DNA from: Lytechinus pictus
Lineage: Eukaryota
Reading direction: 5' to 3'
Assembly: GCF_037042905.1 (NCBI RefSeq)
Contig: NC_087252.1
Location: 930,001-994,000, forward strand
Length of the DNA stretch: 64,000 bases
Both the position numbers and the translations under genes were made by a program. Shown piece after piece: positions 1-62,893 of the stretch; position 1 is the first letter of the stretch, and every line of letters begins with the position of its first letter. The notes below the pieces were generated by a model, which had not been told where the DNA came from, ran no database searches, and saw only the letters and a list, made by a program, of their open reading frames with translations.

Positions 1-540
1 TTTTGCTTGTCAAATTGTTGTTGGTTACGAAAGAAACGACTTTAAATTTGTGTCGAAGACCTTTTTTTTTATTTGGTTGTCATTTCTTTCACCTTGAACC
101 CCCCCCCCCCTCAAAAGTCCTACATACGCCACTGGTTTTCAGTGTAAGTCATCTCTGTCTGAATGGGGGGCTTCTAGACTTGTAATATTGAAATGCGTTG
201 GGAACTTTAAAGCCTGGTAACAGGATAGAAGCAAACCCCTTTACACCAATAAGGATATTTGAATATTCCTGCAGGGTAGGGATGGTAAAGAAGTACAAAC
301 ATCCTCAGAGTTCAATCAACTTTTACATTTTTTATTTAAAACTGCCATGGCTTTTACACTTTACAGCCCAGCAGTGGATGGTGAACCCAGTGGATAGGCA
401 AAGCTTGGCGTTCTACTACTTGCTTCCATTTAATAAACCTCACTTTAATACATTTTGTACATTGATAGATCTAGATGAGGGGGTCAATAGTCCCATTACA
501 ACAATTAAAACAACAGCACTTCTTGTTCATAGTTTTATAA

Positions 541-1038
541 AGGGGAAGTTCAACATGGCAAAAGTTTATTGGAAATTTTTTTTTTTTTAAAGAAAATAAT
601 ATTGCAGAAGTTATGAGAAAAATCCATCAAAGAATTAAAAGTTATTAGAATTTCAATTATTCAATTTGTGACGTCCATATACAGTATGTGAGCAGCATTT
701 CTACATAGTGGATGGTAAGAAAATCAATGAAACGTCATCTAAGAAAATTGAAAATGTTGTTTACTGTACGTTTTGTATACAGTATCAATAGACAAATCAT
801 TTCACACCTGATCATACATAGAAAACAAAAATAAGTCAAAGGAACCATAAAAAATATAATTCATGCATTTTATATTACATAAGGAGCAGCTGCGCGTTTA
901 TGACATCACAAATTCAAAACTTAGAATTCTAATAACTTTCTTAATTCCTAACGGATTTTCCTCAAATCTTTACCAATATTTTTTATCATTTTTCTGCTAT
1001 TTTTATGACAAACTTCTCTTCAGGGTGAACTTCCGCTT
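541..1038. mobile_element. TTAA-target MITE, family A (diverged copies at about 11613-12006 and 58391-58560)
   Basis: AGGGGAAGTTCA ... GGGTGAACTTCCGCT|ttaa termini; similar ends in the other copies. Confidence 0.65.
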
Positions 1039-1435: not shown

Positions 1436-2402
1436 ATTTAGGCCTATATAGTGCTTGTAATAAAAATGTTTCGCAAACAATGAATGATGAAAAAATAAAT
1501 TATTTCATTAAACCAGATTTAATCCTCTCTACAAGCTTTCACTCTGCAAGAAGGTCCTTACTGCCATCAGCTGCACTGTAAAACCGCCTTCTTGCACTGA
1601 CCAGATATTTTGATAAATCACATAATCAAGCCCTCGTATTAAAGCCTATATAACTTCATTTCATCCTCCATCAATGGACCAATGATGCCTTTGACTTTTT
1701 GATTTATTCCACACGGACAAGAAACCCTGCAAAGTTATGAATATTCTATTGGAATTGTATCCCATCCTGACCCGCAGTGTAATCAACCTATCACGTGAGG
1801 AGCTGTAATCTGAGCCGTTCATGTGATGCCGCTGATGCATCTGATGTGCATTTTGATAGTTTCTGTCCATAAAGTTGCATTTTGTAGGCTCATGTGATGA
1901 TGAATAATGTATTTGTATTGCCATTATGAAATACTTGTAGGAAGTCTAAGGACGTTTCATATGATTTTTTTGTTATAATAGGATTAATGCCCTTGGGGCC
2001 TCCACCATCATTTAGGATGGCCCATTTCATGATAAATGTAGCAGGCAAAATTTTTCCCTTTTTTTTATTTCCGGGGGCTACTGTTCACAACTTGCTAAAT
2101 CCCCAATATTGGATAAGCTTTAACATTGTAATGAATGGGGGCTTCCCAGGGATCCTTTTTGAATTTCTAGATCTCCTTTGAGCATTTTGGGGGTGAAATT
2201 GCCCCAAGCCCCTGTGTAATTTTTCTCTGAATGACGCCCTCTTGATGATAGGGGTGCCCCCTCCACTCCCCTCACCCTGGTCCTACAGCATAAAGGAGCA
2301 AAAAGTGAACGTAGAACAATGAACAGGGAGTTCAAACATAATAATAATAGTAATAGTAATGATAATAGTAATGATAATAATATTGATGATAGTAATATTT
2401 AA

Positions 2403-2657
2403 ATACCATAGATGTAGAAACAATCTATCCCGAGGTGCATTGTTTCTAGTATTATTACCCTGACTTTAGCTCGAGCTGCCTTTCAGCGCTCGTGCATTCA
2501 AGGAATTCAACCTGCAGGGTACCCATTCACCTCACCTGGGTCGAGTGCTGCACAATTTGGGTAAATTTCTTGCTGAAGGAAAACATGCCATGGCTACATG
2601 TAGGATTTGAAACTGTTTGAAAGGCGAAAGTCAGTTACTAGACCAAGAGGCGCCCAC
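2403..2657 (-). mobile_element. tRNA-derived SINE (same family)
   Basis: Colinear with 1214-1435 and with the reverse complement of 31414-31692. Confidence 0.75.
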
Positions 2658-3339
2658 ATAGAGGAGACCCAGAATAAGACACACAAAAAAAGAGACTTTC
2701 CATTGCATTTATACCAGTACACTTTCTAGGATTTCAAATCAAAGATGTCCGTATGCAGTCAATGATCCAATCGACCATAAAAATTGCCATTAATCACAGT
2801 ACTTAGCTTTGTCTGAATGAGGAAATGCTTTCCCTTTAAGTGTGTTTTTACAATAAAATGATAGATCAGTAAAAGCACCCTTTAGAATTATGTTTCTTAG
2901 AAAAGGAACAGTCAATTATGAAAAAAATTATGATACAGATGTTTCATTACTTTTATAGACCTTGACCCTTGAGTTGAGAGGATGGGGTAGGATGACTTCA
3001 AATAGATGATAGGCAATAAAAAAAACCACGTAAAAAACTATCACAAAAATGCAGGCAAAATGATTGAGAATTATTATTTTTTTGCCATGTGCACTATCCC
3101 CAGAACTTTTCGTTTATGTACTGTAAAAATGCTGTTTAAATGTTTTAGAATGTTTAAGCCTGTCATTCTAATTTTATAAAGTTTTAAATATTTTTTTTCT
3201 AACTTTAAAACAACTTGTTTAAAAATAAAAAGTTAACAAGGTTGTAAAAGTCTAAACACTCGTTTAGAGTAATGGGTTGAAACAACTTGCTGAAAATTTT
3301 AAATCACATGCAGGGAGCTACTGTATGTAATAATTTCCT

Positions 3340-24680: not shown

Positions 24681-25568
24681 TGTCTATGACAAACCATCTA
24701 CGGGTACATTTTGGGCCTTCAAGGAACTCTTAAATTACAGAGCCAAGAAGTTTTACACAATATGATACATGTACACAAAACAAGATTATAAGATATCAAT
24801 TTCAGGATGGTCTTGCATGAGATCAACATCCACTATATGAACTTGACTACTGGAACACCTCCAGGACTTCATTTATATTCATGTACATTGTTGGTTGGTT
24901 GGTGGCTTGGTCAGCTGGACAACTACTGCATGCTAGTGACCTGTTTTTATGCACTTTTTCGTACCCCTAGGCCAATGTTTATAGTACTTCGAGTCCGATG
25001 TGTTTCTCCATTGTAGCTGGTTTGCACTAATTTCGCTGTTTTCATTGCACTTTTCACTAATTTTTGTGGTCATTTGCTGTGTAATGAACTATGTGTAGAT
25101 TTCCTATCGTAATTGTGTTTTTTGTATAAAATTCTATGAGTTAAACATGGGAAATTAGCTTGAACAGCTTCCTCCAAAAGTTCAATGCACTAGAATTATA
25201 AAGGATGTCATTAGAATATACTGTAAAGAACACCTCTAGATTTGACCTCTTGTACTTTCATAATTTGCATTCATATTGTGTATGTTTGTCCATGACATTT
25301 CTAAATATCCATGAATACTGTACATACATATTCAATGCAATTCAATTGAAGACTCTATTCCAGACACCTCATAAGCAGAGGTCCATATTCATATACAAAC
25401 TTCATAGTATACATGTACATCAAGACAGACGCACAGAGATAAAACTAGATTAAACGAAGAACAGATGATTATGTATAGAGTAGAACAAGGTATAAAATAA
25501 TCACACTAGAATTATACTAGAAACAAAATGACAGCAGATCTAATTAAGGAAATATACAAATGGCAATA

Positions 25569-25748
25569 TGTGTGTGTGTGTGTGTGTATTTGAGTTTTGT
25601 CAGACGTGTATCAATCAGATATGATTATTTACGTCTGGGACCGACCTTTAATGTCACCATCCGAAAGACGTGACCAGGGCTCGAACCTCCGCATCAATTT
25701 GTAACTTCCCCACAGCTTGGATTACAGGCGCACGCCACAACGCCCAGT
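25569..25748 (-). mobile_element. SINE with 7SL-RNA-like (Alu-domain) head, B box and (CA)n tail, copy 1
   Basis: Minus strand ACTGGGCGTTGTGGCGTGCGCCTGTAATCCAAGCTGTGGGGAAGT..GGTTCGAGCCC..GTCTTTCGGATGGTGACATTAAAGGTCGGTCCC..(CA)n. Confidence 0.75.
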
Positions 25749-27672
25749 TATATGAGTAACTTGTTTCAATAAAAGACAAATATACATAACTTTTTTAGTA
25801 GATCACGACTCATGACTCTGCCATTAAATTGTTATACCAATGCTTCCACACCTCTGATGTATACCTTGTACCACTGTGCGATGGGTTAACCAATAATTCA
25901 AGGAATAATTCTAAGGCAAAACTGGATTATTTCGTATAAATTTAATCTCTGAAAAAATGAACTGTTCTTGATCAGTTTATTATTTTCTATGTGACGCCAG
26001 GTCACCCTTATAATCAGACTCAGCAATAACTTTTTATTGTTAAAATCCACTTTGAAGTTATATGTGCACGTATGCTGGCAGGTTATTGCAACAATTGATT
26101 GGCATATAATTTGCATTTATTGTGAAACATGAGGATGATTTATAGTAGTATGAATCTCATTGTTATCATGGTGTGGGTTGCTGTTAAACCACAAAACCAT
26201 TAAATACCTCCAGCATATATACAAATGGAATTGAATAATAATACACCACTGTTTCCGACAGAAAGACAGAAACCAGGGTTTGTTCATAGATGTGGTTTCA
26301 CGCTTCAGTCAAGCTCACATTATTCATACCTGCTGGGACTAGGCATTGCACCACAGCTATCATGAATGGTATCACGGCTAATAGTCCTGAAACATCTCAA
26401 ACTATCCCTGATTCCATACCCAGAATGCACCTTTCTTACCATATCGTCTTGTGGAAAATCCCCCTTTCAAATTTCAGGAGTCTGTGTCGCATTCTTTTAA
26501 CAGGAATCCCACTTTGAAGGCACTATGCATCTTTTCATAGCAGCTTTTCTGTATTCCTATTGGTTTGTCTATGATGAAGTTTACAAATTAAAAGGTCGCT
26601 TGCGAGATTCCAGCGCGGAAGATGAGCATGGTTCTGCCTTTTGATAAGGTATAGGTGTACATAAGTTTAATAATCGTCATCATATTGAAATTCAGTGAAT
26701 ATATGCACTGATACGACAAGAAACCTCAAGAAAGTTTAAAACTGTTATTGGTGATTAGTTTTGACTTCCTTATGAATCATTTTTTAGATTTTATGAGTTT
26801 ATTTTAGGTAGGACCAACTGTTTTTCTTTGTCTTATTACTTGCACAGATCCGGAAGGGATGCTATAATTAAACTGATGTCTGCTGATTGAAGGAAGGATG
26901 TAACTACAGTTATGATCATGTGAATGACTTGGTGTCAGTCTGATCAGTCCTCACTCGTACCTCCGTCGATGTAACAGGAAAAGGCCCAGTGCAAGCAGGG
27001 CATCAGGCGATTATCAGGGAAAACTTGGCAGCGTTTGACAAACAGCGGATCAATTGCCTAATGTAGCAGAAAACCTCTTTCATGGATTCAATAAAGCATC
27101 AGGACTGGTTTGTAGAGCAACGCATTTAGACAGCTGGATATCAAAAGGATACTGAGGAACAGCCTCTTTGCGGACCAGATTTGTTGGGTAAACTGGAGAG
27201 AAAGCAACATCATTAGCTGCGGAAAGTGAACTCTGTGATAAATATTTGATGAAAGTACAATGGAAAGAAGGATTTAATGAATTGTGATTGATATCATCAC
27301 AAAAGCCGCTGCCAAATTGGTCCAAATTGATGAATCTGAAGTTTTTTCGTGTAGCAAAAAGAGGATTGAACGCAGATGGCCAATTAGCTGGAAAATTAGG
27401 AGTCCCTCTGGAAATATCTCCAATTTGTACCGGATCGCGATGAGCGGTGCCAAATCCGTGCCCCAAAATAGCTGTTATGATTCCAGAGGATCTGTGGGAT
27501 TTCAGGTTGTTGACAACATTCCAGTCTGAAAAATAGATTTATTTAGAATAAAAATAAGCATTCAAGGAGAACATTAATGATTCCACAAGGGTAAATATAG
27601 AAACTCAGAAGCTGATAGTTGAAAACATTGATTAGCGTTATCTTGCAACTTGAGTTAATTACAGTGGTTACC

Positions 27673-27748: not shown

Positions 27749-30700
27749 GTGAGTACTGACAGCTATTGTGAATTAGTGACACAAAAATATGGTAATAAAG
27801 TATATACACATGTGCTTACATTAAAAAAATAATGTTAATGACTGATAATACAGTCATGTATTTCCTTAATTTCATCAAAATTATCTTTTTGATAATTTCA
27901 CCTCCCCCCTCCCACGAAAAAGTGATATACCCTAACATTGAGGGATAAGGGTACATAAGTGCGAAGCTACATAGTCCATACTGTAGTTTTGTACAATTGG
28001 TATAATTGAAACCACCTTTGTGAATTTGGGCCAATGAGAGATGATTCTCAGAATTATTATCTCTAACATTCTTTTACAACATGATATTTAAAATTATAAG
28101 GTTGAGAGTGCAAGATTGATACTAAATTCATTTTTCTTTCTAATTTTTGTTTCTCCTCAGTGATTGATGCTCAGCAAACGGTTGTATCAACGCCTGAAAA
28201 TCTATCCGTCAAAGAAGGAGAAACAGTGACGTTAGTTTGCAGTTACGAGCCTAATACGACTGAATTATATTTTGGCTCGCTCTCGTGGCAAATGGGCTCA
28301 AGTGTGTTAGCAGCATACAGTTGCCCTAATGCTTGCAGCAGAACAAATCAAAATACAGACCATTATTCTCTGGATGTTGATTTAATATCAAGCGGTAACT
28401 TGACAATCAGAGATGTTACCTTGGAGGATGATAATGAATATCAGTGTATAGTCACCACTTTCTATGGGACAGCAGGAAGTACATCTCGCCTGATTGTAAA
28501 TGGTGAGTATTTGTATTAGAGCACCATATACTGTACATGTAGATAGAATATAAAAAAGAGCAATTTGAAGGGGAATCCAACTGAAATAGAAACTTGTTTC
28601 GAGAGGTGACAGTTTGAACTATATCGGACAAACAATAAGAAAGTTATGAATTTTTAAAAGTTGTAAATATTGGTAATCACTATACACATGGAGACTTCAA
28701 ATTGGCCACATATGGGATGTCATAGTGATGTAAGGCAAGGACTACTCATCCATGTACTCCAATACATAAAATGGCTAAAATGTAATTTTATTCAAAAGTT
28801 TTCTTCAAACTTTAGTTTTCTTTCATGAGGATATAAAACAATACTACCTGGGTTATATTTAGATTACTGCCCTAGGGGAATATGTACTGAGAGAAAAACC
28901 ACAAATCCCTGATAATTTAAAGTACATGGCCTATGGGAAAGTTGTCCTTGCCCTTGTCATAATTTACCTACCCAGTTGCCAATTTGAAATCTACATAGTC
29001 TTAGGGATCTCAATTTTAAAACAGCCATAACTTTCGTATTGCTTGTCAGATTTCTTTCAAACTTTCACCATTCTGTCACATTTATCTCCATTCCAACACA
29101 ACATTTCATTACCAAGGCTAGATTCCCCTTTAATTTGAAAATATTTATGCAGAATATTTGCCAATGTTGTCTGTTGTGTTTAGTTCTGCAATATATGTTA
29201 ACTGCTCAACATGAAATCACATGTTCACAAGGGGATGTCAGCATAAAAAAAAAACGTTACTCAAACGTGATACCAACCAAGTCTATATATATATAGCAAA
29301 GCATATTGACTTTTATAGAAAGATATACATGTAGACCTGATTTTGGTTACTGGACTTTTGAAATAAATATTTGCCAAACTCTTATGTACAAAATACAGTC
29401 ACATTATTTCATAACTTTTTGCACCGCAGCGCATACTCCATGATCGGAATAGAATTCAAGATCGCAACACTGTCAAATCCCTTTACACAAAGGTTGAAAG
29501 TGGATTTAAACCTGTGTGAGGGGTCTTTGATATACTCCATTCATCTTCAAGCAATCCGCAGTCTAGGTTTTTGCAGTCAATTATTGTTTCCCCCTCTATG
29601 GCAGTGGAATATATTCAGAAAATTCAGTCTATTATTACTTCTCACAATTCCTCACCAAAGATCTTGTCATAACATCAGTGGAATATATTTTTCAAAGATG
29701 GGCCATCTCAATACAGTGTATATCAAATGGTCATCTTCATAAAGGATAACCATTTTTTTTTGTCTCTAGTTCCCCCAGTTAGCTTGAAGCTCTCGGATAC
29801 AATGACCCCAGCTGGCCATCAGCAAGGTGACATTGTCCCCGTTCTGTCCGGTCAAACCTACACCATCACCTGCACAACAGAACCCGGTGCTAACCCACCA
29901 GCAGACCTAGAGTGGACGTCCACCACTGCTCAAATCACTGAGGAGGATCAGGTTGACCAGCCAGTGACCGCCGGTAGTAAGCTGACGGTGTCTAGTAGGG
30001 AGGTGACCTTCACAGCATCGATGGCTGACCATCTGACAGCGGTCACTTGCGAAGCGACGCATCCTGCTCTAGCGACGTCCCTGACAAAATTTATTCAGCT
30101 TGATGTGCAAGGTACGTTGAGTTTTCTTTTTAAGAGCAATACTCTGGCTATCTTGCTATTATTTTTGAAATTCAGTGCAAAATTTGCAATTAGCCAATCA
30201 GGTGACCGTATTGTAGTAGCATTTAACAGTGACTTGTGACTTTGTTTCAAAGCAACCTTTATTATAAAAAAACAATTGTATTTTATTTACCCAGTGTAGC
30301 CAATTCAAATTTTATGAAACTGCTCTACCAGATGGCTCTGAGTAATATAACATATTATTGTCATTATTAATCTATGATGATAATAACCTATTTAAGCTAG
30401 AAGGCATTAGGTCCCATTGTAAAAGTCTTCGGTATGACTTGGAACAGGTATCAATTTTTCAACCTCCCCTTCACGAGGCAAGAGCTGTCCCAGGCCCCAT
30501 AGTGGTAAATGTCATAAATTGGATTTATATTCAATTTAAACCTGCAGATGGCCAATCATTTAGTATACAAAATATGTCTACAAAGGCCACAGTTTTCCTT
30601 GAACATTTGATCATATAAAATATACAAAAGATCCTGTCTATGAAGACCACGTTTCTTGCCTCCCTTGGTTGTTTTATATGGACAGGTTTCACTCTTTTCT

Positions 30701-33700: not shown

Positions 33701-35744
33701 ATCGTAGGACATTTTTCTACGATTTATTCCATTGATTACAATGTACAATCAATTGTGAAAATCAAGCGTACGATCAATTGCTAACCCTTGTGTTACAGGC
33801 CCCTGGTTGTTATCTAAATTCATAACATGGTAAAAAAGGACAGCATTGCGGCATTTCCCTTATGTTTACAAAGAGAAATTGAACAGTGGATGGGGGCGGC
33901 ACGCATGATGGTTCAAAAGAAGTAATACAGTTGTGATCAGAAGTTAGTGAACCCTGCCACAAAACACACTCCTTCATGCTGAGTGTTGAACGTAGACAAC
34001 AACAATACAATGTTTGGTGAACCCATATAAACAAACTTCATTGAATGTAATATATCATCACCTGACTTCACAATTGAATATCTAAAATATGGCAGAACTT
34101 GAACACTTTAAATATGTTCATTTTCTGATGGGGTTCACTACCTTTTGAGCAACACTGTACATGTACATGTCTTTGTATTGATCACAACTTGAAATTAGAT
34201 GTATTCAATAGGATTTATTGTTGAAACTTTGTCTAATCCCTTGTTATGATGAATCTGTTTTCATTGAATGTTGACATCCTTTTCAATTTTGTTTTGATTC
34301 TTTGTCTTCTCTTCCTTTCACACGTTTCTTTTCTTTGTTTCTTCTTCCTTTTTCCTTGTTCATTTGATTTATTGATGCATTTTTCTTACAATGGCTGTGA
34401 TTCAATAACATGATCATCTTCATCTTTGATGGAAGTAAAATTTGATAAGAGTTACATTAAATGGATAATCCTGGTCATAGCTTGTATAGGTTTCCATGAA
34501 TCAATGTACTGTACATGTACATGTATATGAATCATGAAGAGGTGTAAATATTCACATCTGAATGGTACACACTTTAAAACACAAGTAAGCACCGACAATA
34601 ACAATGGTCTGTAGACAACACACATTACTATTATCAATATGATTATTACCATCATCACCATCATCATCAACATCATCATCTTCATCATCATCATCTTCAC
34701 CACCATCATCATCATCATTGTCATCATCAATCGTCATCATCATCACTATCATCATCAACATCATCATCGTCATCATCCTTACCACCATCATCATCATTAT
34801 CATCATCGTCATCATCATCATCATCATCATTGTTATTGTTATCATTTTGTTGTTGTTGTTATTTTACTATTCCTTATATTTGACATCTCTTCTCTGGCTA
34901 GGTCCACCTGACCCACCGGTAATCAGTGGTATCCCTGACGCCATCATCATCATCGTCATCATCAATCATCATTATTATCATCATCGCATCATCATCATTA
35001 TTGTTATTATTATCATTTTGTTGTTGTTGTTATTTTACTATTCCTTATATTTGGCATCTCTTCTCTGACTAGGTCCACCCGACCCACCGGTAATCAGTGG
35101 TATCCCTGACACCATCGATGAAAACCAGCAAACCTCTATCACCTGTGAAGCCGACAATGGCCACCCATCCCCCTCCTTCCAGTGGTTCATTGGCAATAGG
35201 AACCTCAGCGCCGATGCAACGCTTCAGGTGTCTGCAGACGCCAACAACCGTATCGACGCCTTGAGCCAGCTGCGGTACCTGCCTCTGAGGGAGGATAACG
35301 GTCTGGCGCTGCAGTGTAATGTTATCCACAATCAGCTCTCACAGCCGATGAAAGTGATGAGTGATATCCTTGTTGTTAATTGTGAGTTGAATATTTTTTT
35401 TTTGGGGGGGGGTTGGGATTCGAGGGTGGTGGTGGTTGTAGGAAGGTTAGAGATGGTATCAATGAGAGTGCAAGTAGTTGTGTATTTTGTCGTAATAGTG
35501 ATGGGGATGGTAGTGGAAACTTGTTGATTTTTGAAGGTTTATGACAACATCGCCAGGTTCATTATGTCGAATTATTTTACCAGAGAGTCAAAATTATTGT
35601 TTTCTGAGAAATTAAAGTACATGTACCACGTTTAATATCAATTTGTTGTAAGAAAACTTGTTTGATAATAGTAATAGTGGTGACAGGGATGTTAGTGGAA
35701 ACTTTGGTGCGATTATTGAGACTGATGATAATGATATTGATATG

Positions 35745-38700: not shown

Positions 38701-41700
38701 AAAAGTGTGGTGTTAAGGATGTTCTTGCACTGACACAACAATATTTATGTATAGTATGTTGCAAAAATAGTCAATAAAAATTAATTAAGTAAAAAGTTAC
38801 AGGATATTAGACTACACTCTACATGGTTTTACTGTTATATTGTGCAGGTGTTGAAACGATTAACGAGCCAAACGCCTTGCAGACTCACTTCGAGGAAAGT
38901 TCCGAACCCCAAGGCTCCCAGACAACTCTGACCTACATGAGAAACTTCACCAAACAAGACTACAGGCAGAGCTTCAAGTGTTGTACCACCCTCAGCCCAT
39001 CATGTGATTCTACCGTCTGCTCAGAGCCTTGCGTTCCTAATGTCAAATGTGAGTACAATCAGGGTCCAAATGCACAATATCTATAACGAGTTTGCTATCA
39101 GCCAATGACTGGGTTACTAATAATGTGCACACTGTATATCTTATTATAAATGCCAGATTATTATTAATATTATTCTTATCATTTTCCCCGCTCAGATGCA
39201 CCGGAAGAACCCAATATCTCCAGGAACATGCCGGCCCGTCAAGTCAGGGAGGGCACCGCAGACCTAGAGTTCACCTGTCAGGCCGAAGGCAACCCCAGAC
39301 CGGCCCTGACCTGGGTGATGGCCAATAACGAAGGTTTGATGCTTGACCAGTTGACCAAGGAGGATGGATCACAGCTACTCAGGTTCAGAGAGGTTAGACG
39401 ACATCATGCGGGGGTTTACAAGTGCATCGCTAATAACAACATTCCACCAAGGAGTAGCAATCAGAATCAACTTATTGTGCTTTGTAAGTGGACAAACTGT
39501 GATGGGGTGACAGAATAGAAATGAAAGGGGTACTTGGGGCTGTAAGTGGACAGTGTGTATTGGTGTGTGTAATCGATTTTTTTTCAGGCATGTCTCGAGA
39601 TATTATTTACTTCTGGGATCGACATTTAATGTCATCGACCGAAGACATAATAAGTGTTCGAACTTCCATAATCTGCATCAATTTGTGAAATTCCCACCTA
39701 GCATGGGTGACAGGTGCATGCCTCAATACCCAGTGTTAAAACCTTGTATCTCAGACTTTAAAAAAAATATAAGGGCAGTCTTTTCGAAATATAGCCACGG
39801 CTGCAACCTAATATTTCCTTAAAACAAGTCTTCTTAATTCCTGGAGAGAACTCTTTCTAGGTAAAATGTCGTTGCTACTTATGTCAAAAATCTATTCAAA
39901 AGCAAGCTCTTTCTAGCCATCCTGAATTATTTGGGAAGACATCCCTGTGAATGATTTTGGTATTTGATTATCACCAGATTTATTATCTGTGTTTATATAA
40001 ATGTTTCCAATTGTTCCTGTCTGTCCATTCCACTGTGCAACATGGGGTAGACATGTGACCACACATTATTGAGATAGGGACTAGGGGGTAGGACAGATGG
40101 TTATTTCTAATAGATATTATCACACAAATATTAATGAAATTATTACCGTTACTCCACGATATCATTTGATTCTCTTTTCAGTTCCACCTACCATTCAGAA
40201 CAAGGCTAACAATCGGACAACCGCAAACGAGGGCAAGAATGCCACGTTGTCCTGTGTCGTCAAGGGCAACCCGAGCATTGAGGTGAACTGGGAGAGACTC
40301 GGCAACCACTCGGATGAGCTCTGGGACCGGACGCTGGTGGTCAATACCGTGGTGAATAGCGATTACGAGAGCGTGGTGAGGAGCACGTTGAGTATTCTGA
40401 ATGTACGGCCGGACGTTGATCACGGAAATTACAGGTGTACGGCAAATAACACGATTGGAATAGATGAAGCTGTCATCAACCTCAGCGGAACATGTAAGTC
40501 TGATCACTCTGACGAATAGGGTATTGATAGAATAGCGCCACCTACAGTATCTAGGAATGATCTATTTCGAGGTGCAATATTATTGTTATCCTGGTATTAT
40601 TTCGAGCTGCCTTTCAGCACTCAGTGCATTCAAGGAATTCATCCTGCCTGGTACCAATCTACTTTAATTTATCGAAAGTTCATATTTGAGCTCAGAAATG
40701 TACTTTTGATAAATTAAAAGCAAATTATTATTATTTCTATTGGTCTATAGGTTCTTACTCTCATTTTTCAGTCAAAGGGTTGTAGGTTTGAATACCAGCC
40801 ATGGCATGTTTTCTTTCAGCAAAAATAAAAATTACCCGTATTGTGCTGCACTCAACCCAGATTCTTTTAGGTACATATAGATGGTGCTACATGTACATAA
40901 ATGCCTTGATTATTGTTATAATATTATTATGATTATTAATGTCAATTCTTTACTTTCTATTGTTTAAACAGCAAAACCAGAGCCTCCGACATCATTGCGG
41001 GTCGATGCAAGCCGGACCACATCTCATTCATTCATGGCTTACTGGCAGCCAGGCTACGACGGAGGAGTAGAACAATCATACGTCATAATGTACTGTCTGA
41101 ATGACACCCAAATGGACTGCAAGAATATATTTGGTGAGCCATTGTCCCATTCAGACTCGAGCAACCCAAATGAAATGGGGGGGGGGGTAACACCATACAG
41201 GGTTGGACACCCTAGCAGACCTTAATGTTATAAGAGTTGATTTTGTAGGATTAATCTTCTTTTGGAGGAATAATTACATTTGAAGGGGTACTCCAGGCTG
41301 AAAATAATATGATTTGAACAGATAAAGTAAAATCAGACAAACAAATTACTAAACATCTCATCAAAATCAAACAAGGAATAACAAACAGCTTCAATTCAGG
41401 ATAGGAATTAATTCTCTTTTCAATCATGGGGCTAACATTGAACTAAAATGTTATAAATTTTAATACTGATTAAAGTATATGCCAATTTCTAGTTCATCAG
41501 TCTTGATTTGTAGGATCATATTTTGGGGGAGGACAAACAAGACTAACGTTGATACTTTATTTTTTTTATTTTTATTATTTACCTTTTATTTATCTAGGAA
41601 TCAAAGAACCAGAATATCTTTTGGAGGAACTACAAGATTTTCGCTGGTACACCATCATAGTCTATGCAGAGAATACCAATGGTAGAAGCATTGGGAGCAG

Positions 41701-62768: not shown

Positions 62769-62893
62769 GTGTGTGTGTTTAAATGTCACCATCTGACAGG
62801 ACGTGACCAGGGCTCGAATCTCCAACCTCTGCATCAATTTATAGCTTCCTCATTGTAGCTTGGATCATACAGTCGCACACCACACCGCCCAGG
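62769..62893 (-). mobile_element. 7SL-like-head SINE, 3'-shortened copy 3
   Basis: Minus strand CCTGGGCGGTGTGGTGTGCGACTGTATGATCCAAGCTAC..GGAAGCT..AAATTGATGC..GATTCGAGCCCTGGTCACGTC..GATGGTGACATTTAAA(CA)n. Confidence 0.72.

Follow-up and report, generated by a model that had tools for sequence, protein, structure and literature searches.

The window, that is, the whole 64-kb stretch of sea urchin DNA analysed here, carries a full-length short interspersed element (SINE) on the minus strand at 25569-25748, which consists of about 162 nt followed by an 18-nt (CA)9 tail. It is a young copy with 2 differences from the consensus of the 30 best genomic copies, and its letters, re-read from the minus strand, are the same as those quoted in the initial annotation. 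Two older copies of the same family lie on the same strand at 39563-39734 and 62779-62892. In addition, two open frames on the plus strand, at 29673-30236 and 35069-35524, encode immunoglobulin-type domains (C2-set_2, Ig) and are probably exons of a gene that lies 4-10 kb from the SINE.

The young copy is built from clearly delimited modules. Its head (element nt 1-45; 25704-25748), as delimited by alignment to the Rfam model RF00017 and to the host 7SL paralog L037, corresponds to the 5' Alu domain of the host 7SL RNA, with helices 2, 3 and 4 and the UGUAAU turn. Within the head lies an A-box-like element (nt 12-22; 25727-25737), whose sequence is identical in the host 7SL genes and which we take, by analogy with 7SL and Alu, to be a putative Pol III A box. 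The alignment to host 7SL ceases in the linker (nt 46-61; 25688-25703), which is followed by the B box GGTTCGAGCCC (nt 62-72; 25677-25687) in a tRNA T-arm-like context that gives no match to a tRNA model. This B box, which fits the B-box consensus perfectly, starts 39 nt past the A-box-like element and is tandemly doubled in older sub-families. The body (nt 73-111; 25638-25676) forms a small GUCAC..GUGAC hairpin, with a folding energy that is not better than that of shuffled sequences (z +0.60); this is the segment that was earlier likened to the Deu/Nin domain, a resemblance that we treat as putative. A genome pattern for the body that excluded the element's own form returned 29 matches, nearly all of them point variants of the same family, and a second family with a recognisable body motif was not found by this pattern search. 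Downstream, a hairpin CAGACGU..ACGUCUG with an inner stem (nt 112-148; 25601-25637) is two-tiered and, compared with shuffled sequences, unusually stable at -13 kcal/mol (z -3.32; one of 200 shuffles was as stable). The spacer ACAAAACTCAAATA (25587-25600), conserved in all 30 young copies shown, connects it to the (CA)9 microsatellite tail (25569-25586), the length of which differs among copies. Both the B box and the (CA)n tail had thus been read correctly from the start. The longest T run in the consensus is 3, that is, the element contains no internal T4.

Three copies had been proposed for the window, and the family HMM shows that all three are real, but the ends first given for them were about 10 nt off. 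The copy at 39563-39734 is full-length (nhmmer, HMM positions 1-169, E 3e-23; blastn, 72.5% over 189 nt) and shares about 72% of its positions with the young copy; its CpG sites have decayed. The copy at 62779-62892 comprises head, linker, B box and the start of the body (nhmmer, HMM positions 2-102, E 1.9e-19; blastn, 78.9% over 114 nt), and this body start directly abuts a CA run. Running the Metazoa_SRP model on all three copies, as had been suggested, gave a match of 31.2 bits for the young one, but no match at E values up to 10 for the two old ones, whose heads are too decayed for this model; the only Rfam match in the copy at 62779-62892 was to the Alu-derived family mir-1268 (21.1 bits, E 0.14).

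The assignment of the head to 7SL RNA, as the initial annotation had it, is borne out by the covariance model and by the 7SL genes of the host itself. In a permissive Rfam scan of positions 25500-25800, positions 1-44 of the 299 positions of Metazoa_SRP (RF00017) align to 25748-25704 on the minus strand with an E value of 1.2e-6, and this alignment keeps helix 2 (ACU/AGU), helix 3, helix 4 (UCC/GGA) and the UGUAAU turn in register. This was by far the best match in the scanned region, the runner-up being again mir-1268. When the whole 64-kb window was scanned at Rfam gathering scores, no match was obtained, which is expected since the head covers 45 of 299 positions and reaches 31-35 bits against a gathering score of 70. 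The heads of older genomic copies score 34.9 and 34.3 bits with the same model, so that the SINE stays at 31.2-34.9 bits with the 5' domain alone aligned and does not come up to a gene-level match at the 70-bit gathering score.

The host genome contains at least seven full-length 7SL genes with scores of 272-283 bits (25 scored of 6077 first-look candidates). Aligned with one of these, the paralog L037, the head is identical in 42 of 46 columns (91%), including every position from nt 1 to nt 31; against the commoner type of host 7SL, 38 of 45 columns are identical, and an older SINE copy (L038) agrees with host 7SL in 41 of 46 and 42 of 46 columns. The closing helix ACT..AGT, which had been described as a compensatory change, is indeed present in the SINE, but it is not a change that was made there: six host 7SL genes start with ACC and close helix 2 with GGT, whereas L037 starts with ACT and closes with AGT. 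As the same pair is found in L037, the ACU..AGU helix of the SINE was inherited from a 7SL paralog. L037, a full-length paralog of 272 bits on contig C12, has the U3/A43 closing pair and a SINE-like variant of the helix-4 loop. We regard it, from its sequence, as a candidate relative of the source gene of the SINE.

The similarity to 7SL RNA has a sharp limit. When element nt 46-160 were compared with the rest of 7SL, the local alignment score of 15 was the same as the average for shuffled sequences, of which 107 and 110 of 200 reached it. The 3' Alu domain is absent, as the covariance alignments of older copies mostly yield non-pairs past position 47, that is, into helix 5. Judged from these alignments, the head copies the 5' Alu domain of host 7SL and nothing beyond it, with the boundary exactly at nt 45. 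Its near-identity to a 7SL gene of its own host speaks for an independent origin, and together with the unrelated body it bears out the early suggestion of an independent, chimeric SINE with a 7SL head.

Two roles of the captured domain in the life cycle of the element come into consideration. By the mechanism proposed for Alu, the head would fold as the 5' domain of the SRP Alu RNA and bind SRP9/14, which would place the SINE RNA at ribosomes that are making LINE protein. We give SRP9/14 binding and ribosome docking by this head, which are argued by analogy, roughly even odds. The minimum-energy fold of the head contains helices 3 and 4, as it does for the 5' end of host 7SL. The folding energy does not exceed that of shuffled sequences (z +0.92; 160 of 200 shuffles fold as well), so that the support for the fold comes from homology and model alignment and not from thermodynamics. 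In the young sub-family, one of the two C residues of the helix-4 loop is now U or G and one A has been inserted, and the altered loop could weaken the loop-loop contact. An SRP14 exon was found in the host genome (30.6 bits), and SRP9 did not appear in an exon-level search of the same genome, which is no evidence of absence for such a small, intron-split gene.

Alternatively, the head could be a transcription module only, providing a defined 5' end and an A box but having no role at SRP9/14 or the ribosome, with mobility conferred wholly by the LINE-type tail. For SINEs that carry the tail of a stringent LINE, the tail alone generally suffices for recognition. The SINE/LINE pairs of sea urchins, as far as the available text of PMC3747384 describes them, are in keeping with such a promoter-only head, and so are the changed helix-4 loop of the young sub-family, the thermodynamically unremarkable fold and the outcome of the search for SRP9. 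Against it stands the extent of the captured piece, which runs past the A box (ending at nt 22) and stops exactly where the 5' Alu domain does (nt 45). Also, every sub-family seen has retained helix 2, helix 4 and the UGUAAU turn, and the loop alone drifts. Finally, a minimal 5' Alu domain of 46 nt, SA46, was found to be necessary and sufficient for SRP9/14 association and efficient Alu mobilisation (PMC12199147), which makes this unit the minimal part of Alu that binds SRP9/14 and promotes retrotransposition. We consider the restriction of the head to transcription a serious possibility, at a little under an even chance. The opposite proposal, a natural "minimal Alu domain" retroposon in which a 45-nt SRP9/14-binding domain sits on a SINE with a CR1/L2-like LINE tail and no poly(A), is drawn by analogy and is likewise tentative, and we would expect it to fail somewhat more often than to hold.

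That the element is a mobile, high-copy family, as had been supposed from three copies in the window, is confirmed by its abundance in the host assembly (812 Mb in 368 contigs); a Bindin family match of 236.7 bits places this genome among the echinoids. The 34-nt junction of head, linker and B box gave 626 and 641 matches in the genome, 1267 in all, at up to 3 mismatches, compared with 0 for the reversed control. A 27-nt head core gave 750 and 700 matches (1450; control 0), and the sub-families with a doubled B box contribute 184 and 180, that is, 364 further matches (control 0). With the whole 180-nt query, at least 41 matches at 93-100% identity were found on many contigs (40 scored of 1572 first-look candidates), and every large contig carries SINE copies in both orientations. 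On average, the 30 best copies show 99.2% identity to their own consensus, a value that is biased upward because these copies were selected as the best matches. The family HMM found 112 matches in 325 kb of fetched DNA, 73 of them near full length and 23 headless, which is a biased sample since the loci had been fetched through matches to the SINE family.

Several sub-families can be distinguished. The one with the most 7SL-like helix-4 loop has a doubled B box and is the farthest from the young consensus, an intermediate one shows a C-to-T change at a CpG in the helix-4 loop, and the youngest has a loop that is 2 nt shorter and a single B box. The sub-families seen do not differ in nt 1-30 or in the stems of helices 2 and 4; in this small and biased sample, the conserved stems hint at a constraint on the fold. 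The MAFFT alignment of the heads was set aside for structure counts, as helix 3 does not vary in it and its 3' half is not in structural register. From its copy numbers and sequence identities, we conclude that the family is a genuine mobile element of the sea urchin that has recently been active.

The manner in which the copies were inserted is indicated by their ends. The 30 best copies start sharply at the same 5' end, differ in the length of their CA tails and mostly have unrelated flanks. Among the 23 headless copies, 5' truncations begin at eight points (HMM positions 49, 52, 76, 77, 86, 97, 112 and 121). Target-site duplications are short or absent, being at least 5 nt long in 6 of 30 copies compared with 1.9 expected from shuffled flank pairs, and immediately before the element, 11 of the 30 copies have CA and 10 have TA. 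Truncated 5' ends, variable tails and short or absent target-site duplications together point to LINE-driven retroposition; of the marks of target-primed reverse transcription, the 5' truncations and the variable CA tail are present, and the target-site duplications are weak.

Another explanation for the spread of the unit is that it was carried, at least in part, as cargo of a different element, for example one that is Helentron-like, with hairpin ends and internal tandem repeats, and did not depend on LINE-mediated retroposition of its own. This idea derives from a short hairpin with AGACTA at its end that lies at most 40 nt upstream of the SINE in 9 of the 30 young copies (L001-L030), compared with 40 of 2070 control windows, and from the occurrence of several copies at one site of a satellite-like unit. 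However, the motif is missing in 21 of the 30 copies, and where it is present, its sequence and its distance to the SINE vary from copy to copy. A 35-nt 5'-truncated copy at the same site of the satellite unit also argues against cargo transport, as it fits repeated insertion into a preferred target. We therefore consider the cargo explanation improbable. The site in question (L045:1500-1950) has taken up several SINE copies, the 35-nt truncated copy and the end of an (AAC)n repeat, which suggests either a preferred insertion site or a composite element.

Still less probable, and in our view very much so, is the possibility that the matches represent truncated 7SL pseudogenes or segmental duplications and that there is no mobile family. 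Individual loci could be cited in its favor, namely the common flanks or tandem arrangement in L039, L041 and L042, the 7SL cluster on contig C10 and the satellite-rich loci L006, L022, L027 and L028, but it is difficult to reconcile with 1267 copies that share one head/body junction, with flanks that are unrelated in most of the 30 loci, with differing tail lengths and 5' truncations, and with a body that is unrelated to 7SL. Duplication after insertion can nevertheless be seen locally. On contig C10, at about 7.91-7.92 Mb, there are three tandem 7SL genes (L031, L035, L036), each with an old SINE that ends about 33 bp upstream and with the same flanks, which looks like one insertion that was followed by duplication of the whole unit; L031 contains, in addition, another unit of flank and SINE that no gene follows. 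Head-to-tail SINE dimers were found in L039, L041, L042 and L022. Three of these have common flanks, and L040 has a single unit in those flanks, which suggests that the dimers arose by unequal exchange or by duplication of a larger segment and not from a dimeric master copy. On contig C1 (G000:C1:22739240-22744410), head and body motif matches recur about 2.5 kb apart, so that SINE copies are here located inside a larger tandem repeat.

The view that this is an ordinary tRNA-derived SINE, the 5' end of which resembles 7SL by chance, can appeal to the canonical B box in its T-arm-like context at nt 62-72 and to the sea urchin SINEs in the table of PMC3747384, all tRNA-derived as far as the available part of that source goes, but we dismiss it as extremely improbable, since nt 1-31 are identical to a host 7SL gene with 42 of 46 columns identical overall, the SRP model matches with an E value of 1.2e-6, ARAGORN found 0 tRNAs in the 64-kb window, and the Rfam tRNA models gave no match at E values up to 10 in 25500-25800 or at 0.01 on older copies. 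A better fit of the head to a tRNA had been named as the finding that would overturn its 7SL assignment, and the fit to host 7SL genes is far better than that to any tRNA.

Taken as a whole, we think that the element is best explained as a chimeric SINE, in which the 5' Alu domain of 7SL was fused to an unrelated module of linker, B box, body, hairpin and (CA)n and which is probably mobilised by a LINE; we assign this reading a probability of about 0.88. In the life cycle that we propose, Pol III would use the A-box-like element of the 7SL part, together with the B box that follows 39 nt later, to transcribe source copies, the 3' hairpin and the (CA)n tail would be recognised by the reverse transcriptase of a "stringent" LINE, and this enzyme would copy the SINE RNA into new sites by target-primed reverse transcription. 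The fusion itself most likely came about in one of two ways, by a template switch of reverse transcriptase from the RNA of an older SINE to 7SL RNA or by insertion of a 5'-truncated SINE at position 45 of a 7SL gene copy. In a search of sequencing runs, 14 runs of one organism contained at least half of the sampled words, with 13 studies in all; shares of 0.17 were obtained in runs whose labels name sea urchin, echinoderm, fish, marine or seawater metagenome, but no distribution can be read from shares of this kind.

The tail hairpin is likely the recognition signal for the reverse transcriptase of the partner LINE. A repeat that ends in (AAC)n has a related tail hairpin, about 75-80% like that of the SINE, in which one stem pair is changed on both sides, being A-U in the SINE and G-C in the (AAC)n repeat, and this paired change fits a common, structure-dependent recognition signal. 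The (AAC)n repeat (L045:1301-1390; also L046-L054, L078 and L083) is followed in most copies by the same satellite-like sequence. As a candidate for the partner LINE it was rejected, as it seems to belong to a composite, satellite-bearing element rather than to a LINE that has an open frame; in L049, no open frame of at least 150 aa was found in the 1.4 kb upstream of it. Genome patterns that combined the linker or the tail with the exclusion of the upstream letters of the SINE returned 9 and 43 matches, respectively, almost all of which were indel variants or truncated copies of the SINE, and no partner LINE emerged from them. The window and the fetched loci contain 29 open frames of at least 150 aa, of which 25 were searched with Pfam and the four shortest or overlapping ones were left out. 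The frames with reverse transcriptase, endonuclease or zf-RVT domains in L063, L066 and L050 were rejected as partners, as none is followed by the SINE tail. In L063, an Exo_endo_phos frame (120-821, minus strand; 25.8 bits) and an RVT_1 frame (1497-2969, plus strand; 125.8 bits) adjoin a 5'-truncated SINE copy of the opposite orientation, and that LINE shows no sign of the SINE tail.

A parent SINE that carries the same module behind another head was not found in the genome at up to 3 mismatches. The sequence at L018:385-484, tried as such a parent, turned out to be a diverged headless relative with no recognisable head upstream. According to the available text of PMC3747384, known sea urchin SINEs pair with LINEs of the CR1/L2 type. 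By analogy with these pairs, a partner LINE of the CR1/L2 type would be expected for the present family as well.

No mobile element of the human genome has been more successful than Alu, which belongs to the 7SL-derived SINEs. It is extremely rare for such SINEs to arise independently, and the sea urchin would be the first invertebrate case. In the account of Kosushkin et al. 2026, written by the SINEBase curators in February 2026, 7SL SINEs are known, as far as the available text goes, from supraprimates, from hagfish and from a new shrew mole family, with no invertebrates among them, and in all those described, a central deletion of about 183 nt came first (PMC13023118). According to Kojima 2020, no 7SL SINE outside Euarchontoglires had been evident before the hagfish family, which the same available portion describes as a chimera with a tRNA SINE (PMC7245038). 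Our search of the full-text literature, as distinct from the entries of Repbase, Dfam and SINEBase, yielded no 7SL SINE outside supraprimates, hagfish and shrew mole and none from an echinoderm or other invertebrate. The urchin SINE may have been catalogued earlier under another label, and it may be the Pol III-transcribed sea urchin repeat of a 1988 paper. Beyond these questions of precedence, the family would be a clear example of the birth of a SINE by module shuffling, and its young, high-copy insertions could serve as markers in population and phylogenetic work on sea urchins.

The element does not fall neatly into the established classes. With about 162 nt plus a tail and 1267 junction or 1450 head matches, it is a SINE in the general sense of the formal SINEBase definition (PMC3531059). 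SINEBase further asks for at least 60% identity to tRNA, 5S or 7SL RNA over an overlap of at least 60 nt, with exceptions if Pol III transcription is shown (PMC3531059), and here the head has 91% identity but an overlap of 45-46 nt. Like members of SINE1, the element has a 7SL-derived 5' part, but it lacks the 3' end of 7SL and the complete Alu domain that the described members of that class form from both ends. The tRNA-related head of SINE2 is absent too, as the only likeness to tRNA is the T-arm-like B box downstream of the head.

With Alu, B1 and Tu, the SINE1 families of Euarchontoglires, the urchin SINE has in common the 7SL head, the 5' Alu domain with its UGUAAU turn, the high copy number and a promoter whose A-box-like element lies in the 7SL part, upstream of a B box. 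However, these families keep both the 5' and the 3' end of 7SL around the deletion of about 183 nt, as stated in the available text of PMC13023118, whereas the urchin SINE has only nt 1-45. It would thereby be the first 7SL SINE that took the 5' Alu domain alone. Its B box, unlike theirs, comes from the fused non-7SL module, and instead of a poly(A) tail and dependence on L1, it has a hairpin and a (CA)n tail.

The hagfish family SINE1-1_EBu, as portrayed in the available part of PMC7245038, is similar in that an independent, young 7SL head sits on an older SINE with a microsatellite tail. It is mobilised by a non-L1 LINE, for which an RTE partner was identified (PMC7245038), and for the urchin SINE a non-L1 partner is inferred. 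The hagfish element contains 96 nt from the 5' end of 7SL and about 44 nt from its 3' end, and thus the whole Alu domain, compared with 45 nt in the urchin SINE, and the same text gives target-site duplications of about 17 bp, compared with short or absent ones here (PMC7245038). Urop of the shrew mole likewise is an independent 7SL family and was reported as very unexpected, but it is, in the available text of PMC13023118, a mammalian, dimeric and L1-dependent family with the usual central deletion, unlike the urchin SINE.

Closer in host are the sea urchin families SURF1/SINE2-4c_SP, SINE2-3_SP and SINE2-8_SP, which, compared by the description in the available part of PMC3747384 and not by sequence, have tRNA-derived heads but likely resemble the urchin SINE in the layout of body and LINE tail. 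A sea urchin SINE2-type element is a plausible donor of nt 46-162.

Closest in structure to the captured head is SA46 (Moldovan, Yin and Moran 2025, PMC12199147), which comprises the same unit, namely the initial 45-46 nt of 7SL/Alu. SA46 was made in the laboratory and tested with human L1 and a poly(A) tract, whereas the urchin SINE is a natural family with another type of tail and putative SRP9/14 binding. The boundary captured in the sea urchin thus coincides with the 46-nt unit defined in cell culture (PMC12199147), and by this match the family could show, as a natural experiment, whether SINEs that depend on non-L1 LINEs also benefit from SRP9/14 docking. If the head does dock via SRP9/14, hijacking of the SRP Alu domain would be a general and repeatedly evolved route to nascent LINE proteins that depends neither on L1 nor on poly(A) nor on the 3' Alu domain and that extends from vertebrates to invertebrate deuterostomes.
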